Positions 2,084-58,835 of a stretch of 64,000 nt of DNA are shown here, piece by piece. A model generated the notes under the pieces. The model did no database searches. It worked only from the letters and a program-made list of their open reading frames with translations, and was not told the origin of the DNA. This DNA is from Candidatus Thorarchaeota archaeon. Lineage in GTDB: Archaea; Asgardarchaeota; Thorarchaeia; Thorarchaeales; Thorarchaeaceae. The DNA is taken from the NCBI GenBank assembly GCA_048884965.1, contig JBHLQH010000007.1, positions 64,001 to 128,000 on the forward strand. The letters run 5' to 3'. A program made the position numbers and the translations under genes. Within the stretch, counting starts at the first letter, position 1. Each line of letters begins with the position of its first letter.

Positions 2084-2182
2084 TCCAGACCAAAAGAAAT
2101 AGCACTTACGCGACTTAAAAGGATTTTGTGAGTTGTACGATTAATAATACATTTACGAGTAGAGGTGACCGAAAGTAATAGA

Positions 2183-2254
2183 GGCGAGCTCGTAACTCAA
2201 GATCCAAGTCATCGTCAATTTGACTCATCGGGGTCATGACATTCATCGCTCGCC
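2183..2254 (-). ncRNA. Box C/D-like guide sRNA with two K-turns, predicted to target tRNA-Leu position 34
   Basis: 7-bp terminal stem GGCGAGC/GCTCGCC; two GAU-bulge/GA K-turn motifs; 11- and 12-nt spacers; guide GGAUCUUGAGU complementary to a tRNA-Leu anticodon arm. Confidence 0.65.
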
Positions 2255-2297
2255 AAAGATAAGATAAAATGCTATCTTAAATGTGCTGGGATGAATT

Positions 2298-2401
2298 TGG
2301 TGCGGCCACCGGGATTCGAATTCCCGCGAGATGCAATGCAACCTCGTCCCGGGTCGGAAGCTTGGGAAGCTCCCGTCCTAACCAAACTAGACTATGGCCG
2401 C
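2298..2401 (-). tRNA. tRNA-Gly(CCC) with 27-nt intron at 53/54 (2321-2347)
   Basis: Cloverleaf with encoded CCA; BHB with central helix CCCG/CGGG and bulges GG|A and AA|T. Confidence 0.93.
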
Positions 2402-2513
2402 TGTTTCAAAACGAATTATGCGATTGATAAAAGACTATCTATTTGTTTGTGGCTAGAAGTGCTGAATCTCAAATTTTATCTTGGAGATAGATAGCTCCGC
2501 AAACGATTATCAT

Positions 2514-3644
2514 ATGACCTCTTCAAAAAATGTGGAAGCACATTATTGGCAAGGAAACCAAGCCTGCGCAGAAGGTGCACTTGCAGCTGGATGCAGGTTT
2601 TTCGCTGGTTATCCAATTACTCCCGCATCTGAAATTGCTGAAATAATGTCGCAAGCACTTCCCAGAATTGGTGGAACTTATTTACAAATGGAAGATGAAA
2701 TTGCAGCTATATCAGCAATAATTGGTGCCTCATGGGGAGGCAAGCTCTCCATGACCGCAACATCAGGTCCTGGTTTTAGCTTAATGCAAGAAAACATTGG
2801 ATATGCAATTATGACTGAAACGCCTTGCGTAATTGTAGATGTTCAACGTGCAGGACCCAGTACAGGACAAGCAACAAAAGTAGCGCAAGGGGATTTCATG
2901 CAAGCAAAGTGGGGTACACATGGAGATCATGAAAGTGTTGTATTTGCACCCTATTCAGCTCAAGAAACTTACGAGCTTACTATCAAGGCCTTTGAAATCT
3001 CGGAGAGGTTAAGACATCCGGTCGTTATACTGTCCGATGAGATTGTTGCACATTCGAGAGAACGGGTGATTGTAGAAAGAACTCCAGATGCTCTTGTCAC
3101 TCGATCTTTTTCGAAAATTGGAGATCCTCCATATGGAGGCATAGACTCTGAAGGAAAGTCCTTAATGCCCAAATTCGGAGAAGGACACAACCTTTTGGTA
3201 ACAGGTTCTACCCATAATGAACAAGGGTTCAGAAAGACTTCGGACGCTACGACTCATGATAGTCTTATCAGAAGACTAAGTGCCAAAGTTCTCAATCAGA
3301 TTGATCTCCTTACAGATGTAGTGGTCAATGGACCTGATACTTCAGAATGGGGAGTGGTATCTTTTGGGAGTACTTCAAGATCTGTAGAGGAAGCCATGAT
3401 AGAGAGTAATACTTCTTTCAGATCTCTGAGATTACGAACTCTTTGGCCATTTCCTGATAAAGTCGTGAAAGATTTCTCCAAAACGGTTGATAAGTTACTT
3501 GTACCAGAGCTAAATCTGGGACAGCTTATCAATGAAGTATCTCGTGTTTCTTGCGATTCTGTTGAAGTTGTCCCATTGAATAAAATTGGTGGAGGATTGC
3601 TAATCGACCCTGAAGAGATAACTGGAATACTTGACAATAAATGA
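2514..3644 (+). CDS. korA: 2-oxoacid:ferredoxin oxidoreductase alpha subunit
   Basis: GNQACAEGA, FAGYPITPASE, QMEDEIAA, TSGPGFSLMQE; start moved to ATG 2514. Confidence 0.9.
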   Translation: MTSSKNVEAHYWQGNQACAEGALAAGCRFFAGYPITPASEIAEIMSQALPRIGGTYLQMEDEIAAISAIIGASWGGKLSMTATSGPGFSLMQENIGYAIMTETPCVIVDVQRAGPSTGQATKVAQGDFMQAKWGTHGDHESVVFAPYSAQETYELTIKAFEISERLRHPVVILSDEIVAHSRERVIVERTPDALVTRSFSKIGDPPYGGIDSEGKSLMPKFGEGHNLLVTGSTHNEQGFRKTSDATTHDSLIRRLSAKVLNQIDLLTDVVVNGPDTSEWGVVSFGSTSRSVEEAMIESNTSFRSLRLRTLWPFPDKVVKDFSKTVDKLLVPELNLGQLINEVSRVSCDSVEVVPLNKIGGGLLIDPEEITGILDNK

Positions 3645-51449: not shown

Positions 51450-51619
51450 TGGTGCCGCAGGGGGGAAGCCGTGGTTAGATGGAATTCATCTAACCTTTCG
51501 AGCCCCCGACTTCGAGATTTCTCATCTCGGGCCTTCGAGACGTTGACCCCATAGTTTAGGTCGATTGAGTCGACCAAGATTATGAGTCTCGCGCCCTAAC
51601 CAGGCTAGGCCACTGCGGC
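51450..51619 (-). tRNA. Elongator-type tRNA-Met(CAT) with two introns (37/38, 51519-51580; 59/60, 51467-51496)
   Basis: GCCGCAG/CTGCGGC, CGAGA-CT-CAT-A|A-TCTCG, BHB CTCA/TGAG; T-loop reads CTCGAA|T. Confidence 0.85.
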
Positions 51620-57029: not shown

Positions 57030-57147
57030 TGGTGCGGGAGGAGGGACATCCTACCCATATGGCAACCAGATGGGTGTTCGAACCCTCGAACTCCTACGAG
57101 AGAGGATCTTAAGTCCTCCGCCTTTGACCTGGCTGGGCGACTCCCGC
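57030..57147 (-). tRNA. tRNA-Leu(TAA) with 30-nt intron at 59/60 (57047-57076)
   Basis: GCGGGAG/CTCCCGC, GAGGA-CT-TAA-GA-TCCTC, long variable arm, TTCGAA|intron|T. Confidence 0.92.
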
Positions 57148-57252
57148 TTTGATCAAAGTCTGACCCCACGTCTTACCTTCATAGGAACTCACCGCATGTG
57201 TTCCCACCATTGTATTACAAGTAATAACAATTGATGTTGAGGAATGCAAAGA

Positions 57253-57360
57253 TGGTGGGCCGCGCCGGATTTTTTGGCCACAAGCTCGTATGGAGCCCAT
57301 GTGAACCAGCGACCTCCTCGGTGTAAACGAGGCATCATAGCCGGGCTAGACTAGCGGCCC
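57253..57360 (-). tRNA. tRNA-Val(TAC) with 30-nt intron at 56/57 (57273-57302)
   Basis: CCTCG-TT-TAC-AC-CGAGG; central helix TGGT/GCCA with bulges TC|A and AA|A. Confidence 0.92.
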
Positions 57361-57388: not shown

Positions 57389-58078
57389 TCAATTAAAAAC
57401 GTACCGTCGCGACGCTATGACATGGAACTCCTGCAATGAATCATCCATCTCGACAGTATGAAGGATATCAAAATCAGTACCCAGTTCTGTAGTTACCTGA
57501 GTTCTCATCTCCTCATTGAGCCGCGACTTCATAGCACAAACGAGTATTCCTGAGTCTTTCAACAAAGGCGTGTATCTTTCGACCAGCTTTAGTGTGCCAT
57601 CCGGGTCAGTCGTGACATCTATCAGCAATAAATCAAGTGCTCCTTTTGCACAGACAATCTCTGGGTCAATCTCGAACGCATCTGCTATGAGCACAGACAC
57701 ATTCTCATATCGGCGGACAATCTCTGTCAGGTGTGGTCGAAATTCGTCTGAAACCTCAATCCCAGTAACCATGACCTGTCGTGTGGCAAGATATGACAGG
57801 AATCCCCCAGCTGAACTACCGATATCGAGAGCAATTCCACCTTGCGATATGAGGTCCCTTCCAAGTATAAGCTCAATCCTTTCCAACTTCCTGTAGCCAT
57901 GAGGTAGATCAATCGCATCCTCGGAAACCACGATATCCTCAGTGCCATCCACGTACTTGGAAGGCTTTGCCACTCTTCCATCCACAGTGACATGTCCTTC
58001 TTTAATCGCTCTTTTTGCTGCCTGTCTTGATGAGAACCTTCCATCTTCAACAAGCCAGATATCAAGCCTTGGCACCAT
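57389..58078 (-). CDS. S4-domain RNA methyltransferase (TlyA/FtsJ-like)
   Basis: RLDIWLV...SRQAAKRAIKEG.V.VDG; LDIGSSAGGF. Confidence 0.85.
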   Translation of the reverse strand: MVPRLDIWLVEDGRFSSRQAAKRAIKEGHVTVDGRVAKPSKYVDGTEDIVVSEDAIDLPHGYRKLERIELILGRDLISQGGIALDIGSSAGGFLSYLATRQVMVTGIEVSDEFRPHLTEIVRRYENVSVLIADAFEIDPEIVCAKGALDLLLIDVTTDPDGTLKLVERYTPLLKDSGILVCAMKSRLNEEMRTQVTTELGTDFDILHTVEMDDSLQEFHVIASRRYVFN

Positions 58079-58835
58079 GTTTCGCCGCCTGTATCTCTCG
58101 AGGTATGAATAGATGCATTGGGACACCGCGAAGGCGAGGACCTATCGCTGCTAGTATCCCAGAAGCACGAGTACTCCGCTTGCATTGTAAGGCGAACTCA
58201 AAGATTCCCAGCTTCTCAATCTTGTAGATATCATCAGTATGTCCGGCCTTTTCCAGAGTGGCCTCAAGCATTTCCTGATTGGCGCCAAATACTAGGAGGC
58301 GCTCATGGTCATCTGTCACCCATTCATTATAGCGTTCCAAGAAACTCTGTGAGAACTCCGCACCGATTTGCTCATTCTCGAAATTCACCTCTGAGACTTG
58401 GATTTCAACGGGTAGATAGTCCACGAGGACCAAGCTACGAGCGAGTCTTCGTAAGGGTACACCTTCCATGCCCATTTGCTCCCGCAGTCGGTGTAGAGGA
58501 AGAAGCGCATCTATTTTCGACTCTGACAGTCCGACATCGACATAGATACCATACCCCACCTTTCCAACATCTGTCAACTGACCTGAGTATACACGTTCAG
58601 GCAGTATCTCATGAGATGCAGGTGCCTTTCCATACTCTTGTGACAGAAGATTGATCACAAACTCCGAATCAGGTCCTTCAACTGAGAGGAATACATGTTC
58701 TCTCTTATCAACGTCCAGAATTACAGACGACAGGTCCAACTCACTGATTATAGTCTCTATCTCAGACTGCAGAGTGGTCAATAGCCTGTTCCGATATTGC
58801 CCATATACCTTGGGCACAAGAGTGATGGTTTTCAA
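58062..58835 (-). CDS. DUF2110-like archaeal protein
   Basis: GKVGYGIYVDVG, GH..DI..IEKLG.FE; conserved position next to tfe. Confidence 0.75.
   Translation of the reverse strand: MKTITLVPKVYGQYRNRLLTTLQSEIETIISELDLSSVILDVDKREHVFLSVEGPDSEFVINLLSQEYGKAPASHEILPERVYSGQLTDVGKVGYGIYVDVGLSESKIDALLPLHRLREQMGMEGVPLRRLARSLVLVDYLPVEIQVSEVNFENEQIGAEFSQSFLERYNEWVTDDHERLLVFGANQEMLEATLEKAGHTDDIYKIEKLGIFEFALQCKRSTRASGILAAIGPRLRGVPMHLFIPREIQAAKHGAKA

Follow-up and report, generated by a model that had tools for sequence, protein, structure and literature searches.

The sRNA locus and its surroundings

The window is a stretch of 64,000 nt (G000:C7:64001-128000) out of the 4.1-Mb Thorarchaeia (Asgard) assembly G000. 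Near its start, a gene for a small RNA (sRNA) sits between tRNA-Gly(CCC) and cdc6/orc1 (872-2083), with all three on the minus strand. The 3′ end of tRNA-Gly(CCC) is located 43 nt upstream of the sRNA, and in all sampled Thorarchaeia the sRNA lies approximately 100 nt upstream of cdc6.

2183-2254, minus strand: box C/D sRNA gene, 72 nt, with two K-turns (from parse, fold, conservation and covariation)
2298-2401, minus strand: tRNA-Gly(CCC) with a T-arm intron at approximately 2321-2347; a neighbour, probably on a separate transcript

A conserved 19 nt motif (2162-2180, minus strand) directly follows the 3′ end of the sRNA, is found at the same place in L001-L024 and precedes the cdc6 TATA box (approximately 2115-2121). 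It is possibly a terminator, or a binding site for Orc1 or a regulator. Further along the window, an oxidoreductase alpha-subunit ORF (2481-3644, plus strand) runs approximately 350 nt (3296-3644) into the 3′ end of a convergent 876-aa ORF; no beta-subunit gene comes after it.

Architecture and conservation

Reading the sequence confirms exactly the 72 nt parse given in the earlier note for 2183-2254 of the minus strand: a 7-bp terminal stem, guides of 11 nt and 12 nt, and a 4-bp internal hairpin, with a 3-nt bulge and tandem G-A pairs forming a K-turn at both ends. The component parts, in 5′ to 3′ order of the RNA, are as follows.

2248-2254, minus strand: 5′ strand of the terminal stem, pairing with 2183-2189; paired in 98.8 % of cells, both partners changed in 2 pairs
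2240-2246, minus strand: box C, degenerate; G-A core and bulge U invariant in the homolog alignment
2229-2239, minus strand: D′ guide; 7-nt core invariant in Thorarchaeia and complementary to a pre-tRNA tag
2225-2228, minus strand: box D′; canonical CUGA in G007, G021 and G022
2214-2224, minus strand: internal hairpin closing the C′/D′ K-turn; compensatory change in all 4 pairs
2206-2212, minus strand: box C′ (homolog alignment)
2194-2205, minus strand: D guide; D+5 is the G at 2198, facing tRNA position 34
2190-2193, minus strand: box D; degenerate in this copy, whereas G007, G016, G022 and numerous distant homologs have CUGA

The sRNA folds better than shuffled sequences (z -3.1) and is the sole match to a relaxed double-K-turn pattern in the 4.1-Mb genome. 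Of the 24 family relatives sampled at first, 23 have a homolog. When these are aligned, the stems, both guide cores, the G-A cores and the bulge U prove either invariant or co-varying, and the other box positions drift. Overall, 91 % of stem cells are paired and 8 of 13 pairs have changed on both sides, the K-turn 4b-4n pairs included; none of 500 shuffles reached as high a value, and slid controls were 31-49 % paired. The two K-turns with GAU bulges and the 11/12-nt guides are thus borne out by parse and covariation.

When compared with the box consensus RUGAUGA/CUGA, only the G-A cores and the bulge U agree in this copy. The earlier note had called the boxes non-consensus and expected standard scans to pass over them. 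This holds for the present copy, for which no Rfam family was matched even at E 10, but not for the homologs, as the boxes are canonical or near-canonical in the orthologs of G007 and G022 and in many distant homologs. In G007 and G022, canonical D and D′ boxes together with compensating C and C′ boxes fix the box register.

A covariance model finds one copy of the sRNA each in 74 of 151 genomes of the phylum, and further homologs from a pattern scan belong to Loki-, Hermod-, Jord/Frey- and Sif-labelled records and to many Bathyarchaeia. By its sequence, the element is a conserved double K-turn box C/D sRNA of Thorarchaeia, most Asgard lineages and Bathyarchaeia. Fibrillarin and Nop5 (on the same contig) and L7Ae-family genes are encoded in this genome, and from known biochemistry L7Ae, Nop5 and fibrillarin would be expected to assemble on the sRNA.

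Promoter and linkage to tRNA-Gly

2276-2281, minus strand: TATA box of the sRNA's own predicted promoter, 27 nt upstream

In 26 of 36 homologs a YTTAAG hexamer starts 27-31 nt upstream of the sRNA, and the other homologs have TATA-like variants at that position. In G011 and G134 no tRNA-Gly was found within 600 nt of the sRNA. Archaeal tRNA-sRNA dicistrons are already known, and the locus resembles the archaeal and plant tRNA-C/D RNA dicistrons (PMC7994747) in that the sRNA is located just 3′ of the tRNA on the same strand. Unlike these, it has its own TATA box, a spacer that ranges from 42 to 236 nt across homologs, and a linkage that is sometimes absent.

A dicistron of tRNA-Gly and sRNA had been proposed in the earlier note. 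Under such an arrangement RNase Z would free the sRNA, and the D′ guide would be left without a target. The linkage to tRNA-Gly(CCC) is indeed old (most Thorarchaeia, Hermodarchaeia, G025, G036 and G056), read-through from the tRNA into the sRNA is possible, and the second guide of known tRNA-targeting sRNAs is usually an orphan (PMC7994747). However, the TATA box is conserved at -27 to -31 while the spacing to tRNA-Gly varies or the linkage is lost, which makes an own promoter the simpler reading, and the invariant D′ core co-varies with a tag in pre-tRNAs (see below). The dicistronic origin with a targetless D′ guide is therefore very unlikely. The sRNA would be transcribed independently, from its own promoter.

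The constant position upstream of cdc6 would also fit an inverted repeat that serves as a DNA element of the cdc6/orc1 upstream region, either an origin or a regulator site, and is not an RNA at all. Such a site is scarcely credible given the G-U-tolerant and compensatory stem changes, the K-turn geometry, the guide matches to tRNAs, the TATA box belonging to the sRNA, and the homologs of other lineages that have different flanks.

The D guide and tRNA-Leu(CAA)

The D guide had been predicted to pair with positions 31-41 of the tRNA-Leu(UAA) in the window, with a G-U pair at 34, and to pair perfectly with a CAA isoacceptor. The former pairing holds, and the isoacceptor is present in the genome (G000 C62:1919-2064, minus strand), where it is fully complementary to the D guide at positions 31-40/41, with C34 facing D+5. 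The duplex is estimated at -19.8 kcal/mol and comprises 11 bp with the mature form and 10 bp plus a G-U pair with the precursor. The guide fits this tRNA both spliced and unspliced, since the first three bases of exon 2 recur at the start of the 37/38 intron. Positions 32-40 are kept in all 19 of the Thorarchaeia Leu(CAA) genes read.

The sRNA RNP very probably makes Cm34 on tRNA-Leu(CAA) unaided, which is an already known job for an archaeal C/D sRNA. In vitro, sR47 of Pyrococcus abyssi, which shares this target and register, methylates C34 of tRNA-Leu(CAA) (PMC3413156). The two sRNAs (PMC3413156, PMC5558902) are alike in D-guide target sequence, register and size class. Unlike sR47, the sRNA of this genome has degenerate boxes, a short-stem C′/D′ K-turn and a conserved D′ guide for precursor tags.

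Several observations concern other tRNA genes of the assembly. Dense arrays of intron-poor, divergent tRNA genes are located at G000 C4:160883-163299 (approximately 21 genes) and C9:108216-108648 (approximately 5), and both have the look of cargo carried by mobile elements; among the C9 genes are four Leu tRNAs, none of which is fitted by the D guide of the sRNA. Several copies of a tRNA-Thr 3′ end, matching a gene on C91, are spread over 9 kb (G000 C9:691-9257) and look like repeated integration scars. ARAGORN calls a tRNA-Sec gene at G000 C43:20096-20186, and no native tRNA-Trp was found in this assembly. Three genes with T-arm or double introns are missed by ARAGORN, namely the Met elongator (51450-51619, missed by Rfam too), Val(UAC) (57253-57360) and Gly(CCC) (2298-2401), and the T-arm intron of tRNA-Leu(UAA) causes it to be given a wrong 3′ end.

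The D′ guide and a tag in tRNA precursors

For the D′ guide the earlier note had named no target. Its complement is now found in a GGGGUCA tag, 7-9 nt long when matched to the guide, which was found only in discarded parts of pre-tRNA-Leu(UAA) and pre-tRNA-Met. Among intron-bearing Thorarchaeia genomes, 62 of 65 carry GGGGUCA in the 37/38 intron of pre-tRNA-Leu(UAA), 12-16 nt past position 37. The tag is thus located 3′ of the D target, which is the 5′-to-3′ order required by a dual-guide RNP. In the present genome the Met precursor carries the tag in its intron.

51450-51619, minus strand: elongator tRNA-Met gene, C34 at 51584; two introns, one of 62 nt at 37/38 (51519-51580) and one in the T arm
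51544-51550, minus strand: tag complementary to the D′ guide, within the tRNA-Met intron

The elongator tRNA-Met intron is tagged in 6/6 Thorarchaeia, and also in G030, G060 and G216. Other Asgard families and Bathyarchaeia carry the tag in D-arm introns of Leu(UAA), and it was found in 5/5 Loki-type and 3/5 Bathyarchaeia genomes. Within this genome it is present at 2 of 66 tRNA loci, exactly Leu(UAA) and Met, with 0.32 expected. The D guide is imperfect on both of these, having a G-U pair at U34 of Leu(UAA) and two mismatches in Met, and none of 19 Thorarchaeia Leu(CAA) introns contains the tag. Thus the perfect target is untagged and the imperfect ones are tagged. The duplex of the D guide with Met is estimated at -9.8 kcal/mol, and that of the D′ arm with the tag at about -14 kcal/mol.

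Guide and tag also change together. Watson-Crick pairs are found in 35 of 38 cases at position +2 (25.4 when shuffled) and in 24 of 38 at +9 (14.7 when shuffled), counts which overstate independence since the genomes are related, and for which the tag sites were picked by their core. At +2 the pair is C-G in most genomes and U-A in two families; at +9 Thorarchaeia have A-U, several other families C-G, and G020 U-A. The duplexes are short (median 8 bp, most 7-9 bp), reaching 10-11 bp in G013, G014, G030 and G060, and the tag is degenerate or absent in G010, G161, G164, G018, G019 and G175, and in G210 and G212.

Several placements depart from the common one. In G025, of a sister family (L253, L139), Leu(UAA) and Leu(CAA) both have a 6-bp tag match in D-arm introns, and the match in Leu(CAA) is an exception to the rule that the CAA precursor is untagged. 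A near-tag of Leu(UAA) in G036 (L130) has one extra U and is located in a variable-arm intron, not in the D-arm intron. In Hermodarchaeia the tag is 5′ of the D arm, in the leader or in an acceptor-stem intron.

Other targets for the D′ guide were considered and set aside. This assembly is without rRNA; in four 23S and five 16S rRNAs of relatives no conserved site above 6-8 bp was seen. A dual-guide C/D sRNA with an rRNA target was likewise rejected, as the second guide makes no pairing of 9 or more nt with these rRNAs. Pairing with the anticodon arm of initiator tRNA-Met needs a bulged C32, and the four-G run is not conserved in G009, G014 and G016. In the literature on Asgard C/D guides or intron tags, subscription papers being outside the coverage, nothing describing this tag arrangement was found.

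A presumed leader tag where the Leu(UAA) intron is absent

The tRNA-Leu(UAA) gene of the window is without an anticodon intron, and its tag is located upstream of the gene.

57030-57147, minus strand: tRNA-Leu(UAA) gene, no anticodon intron, T-arm intron present; U34 at 57111
57161-57167, minus strand: tag complementary to the D′ guide, 13 nt upstream of tRNA-Leu(UAA) and within its presumed 5′ leader
57177-57195, minus strand: leader module; opens with a near-copy of the tRNA 5′ end, then runs into a stretch complementary to the variable arm (57088-57102)
57253-57360, minus strand: tRNA-Val(UAC) with a T-arm intron, approximately 105 nt upstream of tRNA-Leu(UAA); a possible co-transcript

Among 15 intron-less Leu(UAA) genes of Thorarchaeia, 12 have an exact upstream tag, 2 a degenerate one and 1 none; among 61 intron-bearing genes, no leader is tagged. 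Kinship among the genomes makes these counts, too, look more independent than they are. The intron-less genes fall in four genera, and on a Cdc6 tree at least 3 changes between the intron and leader forms of the tag are needed, with exchange of the tRNA locus being another possible route. In 7 genomes of the class of G026, where the Leu(UAA) genes themselves were not located, the upstream-tag pattern gave no match.

The leader module is conserved, starting like the tRNA 5′ end and continuing with ten bases complementary to the variable arm of the tRNA. When compared with shuffles, the leader-variable arm duplex has p <=0.03 in 12 of 15 intron-less genes and p <0.05 in 4 of 28 intron-bearing ones. 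For this genome alone the helix has p 0.13, and its pair probability in the folded precursor is 0.97. Across the alignment 89 % of cells are paired, with compensatory change in 3 columns. In 14/14 cases the tag follows 8-10 nt behind the leader segment, while the spacing to the tRNA ranges over 27-48 nt. Counted through the helix, the seven bases from position 38 to the first variable-arm pair plus the spacer give 15-17 steps, close to the 12-16 of the intron. In these models the leader seems to fold back and to present the tag about where the intron would. RNAalifold did not recover the long-range helix, pairing the 5′ part of the leader with the tag as a local hairpin (three rows one column off), and the module also survives in some intron-bearing genomes.

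Several intron-bearing relatives have a proximal TATA box; none is recognizable at the Leu(UAA) gene of this genome, which fits read-through from tRNA-Val(UAC). The leader would be transcribed as part of pre-tRNA-Leu(UAA). A UNCG tetraloop as the cause of the conserved leader segment was rejected, the closing pair being missing in genera g1 and g3, and a reading of the palindrome at 57210-57220 as a promoter was dropped. Directly upstream of the two tRNA genes, 57389-58126 (minus strand) encodes a TlyA-like protein with S4 and FtsJ methyltransferase domains, which by its sequence would be a stand-alone 2′-O-methyltransferase beside a predicted target.

The mobility of the tag bears on what the D′ guide does. 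One possibility is that this guide directs methylation of the fourth G in the tag, as an ordinary guide would, with the mark or the excised intron having a role of its own, such as a cleavage block or a decoy. D′+5 always faces a G with Watson-Crick pairs on either side, the full C′/D′ K-turn is conserved, and the duplexes of 10-11 bp in four genomes would suit a guide. Most duplexes, however, have only 7-9 bp. As the tag can be located in the anticodon intron, in the D-arm intron or in the leader, an anchor is a better fit than a mark tied to one site, and a leader tag cannot become an intron circle. Methylation of the tag is thus improbable.

Proposed mechanism

The preferred reading, to which a probability of roughly 0.6 is given, is that of an independent box C/D guide for Cm34 on tRNA-Leu(CAA), in which the D′ arm is an anchor that extends the RNP to position 34 of tagged precursors. 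The D′ guide would grip the tag in the precursor and would not direct methylation there; the anchored RNP would act at U34 of Leu(UAA) and C34 of Met, tRNAs that the D guide fits poorly. As the tag is located in discarded parts of the precursors, action on these two tRNAs would be confined to the precursor. In most Thorarchaeia the 37/38 intron would offer the tag, and where it is absent the pairing of the leader segment with the variable arm would bring the leader tag to about the same place. That the D′ anchor lets the RNP reach and modify position 34 of pre-Leu(UAA) and pre-Met ahead of their processing is, overall, somewhat favoured.

The wobble riboses of Leu(UAA) and Met are methylated elsewhere in life, by TrmL, Trm7-Trm734 and sR-tMet (PMC4033218), and Pyrococcus has dedicated guides for position 34 of both (PMC7994747). 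When this genome was scanned for another sRNA dedicated to Met or Leu(UAA), none with clear C/D architecture was seen. Archaeal C/D methylation is reportedly weakened or lost when the guide duplex contains a single mismatch (PMC5558902), which weighs against modification of U34 through a G-U pair and against that of C34 in Met. With the anchor, we infer that U34 of Leu(UAA) could be methylated via the G-U pair, and C34 of Met despite two mismatches.

The main rival holds that the RNP methylates C34 of Leu(CAA) only, and that on pre-Leu(UAA) and pre-Met, bound via the tag and partial D pairing, it is a chaperone or gatekeeper of precursor processing. It would open the bulge-helix-bulge or a mis-folded leader and time splicing or 5′ processing, with no methylation at position 34. 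The mismatch sensitivity noted above speaks for it, as do D duplexes that are imperfect at or beside the target position and D-guide pairing that is incompatible with the central bulge-helix-bulge helix. Likewise, folding predictions have the leader trap the precursor in a structure other than the cloverleaf (-63 kcal/mol, vs -47 kcal/mol with the leader held unpaired), and the leader can hide the tag in a local hairpin. Yet the tagged tRNAs are exactly those in which position 34 is ribose-methylated elsewhere (PMC4033218, PMC7994747), and this genome shows no other guide of clear C/D form that could serve them. A role in processing alone is considered unlikely.

Generalized to Asgard archaea and Bathyarchaeia, the anchor reading would have a portable tag of 7-9 nt recruit one C/D RNP to near-cognate wobble targets, with the leader taking over the job of a lost intron; the chances of this wider form are put at about even.

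Comparison with other wobble guides

The four Pyrococcus wobble guides, for Leu(CAA), Leu(UAA), Met and Trp (PMC7994747), address the same position-34 target set. In Pyrococcus there is one guide per tRNA and the second guide is an orphan, whereas here one sRNA appears to serve three tRNAs by means of tags. Like sR49/sR-tMet (PMC2584109), the Thorarchaeia sRNA would act on an intron-containing precursor, part of whose intron pairs with the sRNA. In the euryarchaeal Met guides, however, the D guide spans the exon-intron junction of Met with full complementarity, and their D′ guides show no conservation (PMC2584109). In the present sRNA the D guide has mismatches with Met, and it is the conserved D′ arm, separate from the D guide, that pairs with a tag farther away. 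Membership of the sR49/sR-tMet family was rejected because of these two D-guide mismatches, as compared with full complementarity in the published alignment (PMC2584109).

The leader substitute and the predicted fold-back helix are new evidence provided by this genome. A 7-nt intron motif co-evolves with a guide, is kept in approximately 95 % of introns and returns in the leader once the intron has gone; this reappearance amounts to a natural experiment and speaks for a function. The persistence of tRNA introns has long been a puzzle, and Asgard archaea are the lineage closest to eukaryotes, in which Trm7 and SNORD97 share the job of wobble methylation. If the preferred reading is true, the tag gives these tRNA introns a function. 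Loss of the intron would then have been answered by a leader that mimics intron geometry via the variable arm, with at least 3 switches in Thorarchaeia. It would also add a new design rule for guide RNAs, in which the second arm, as an anchor, widens the target range of the first.
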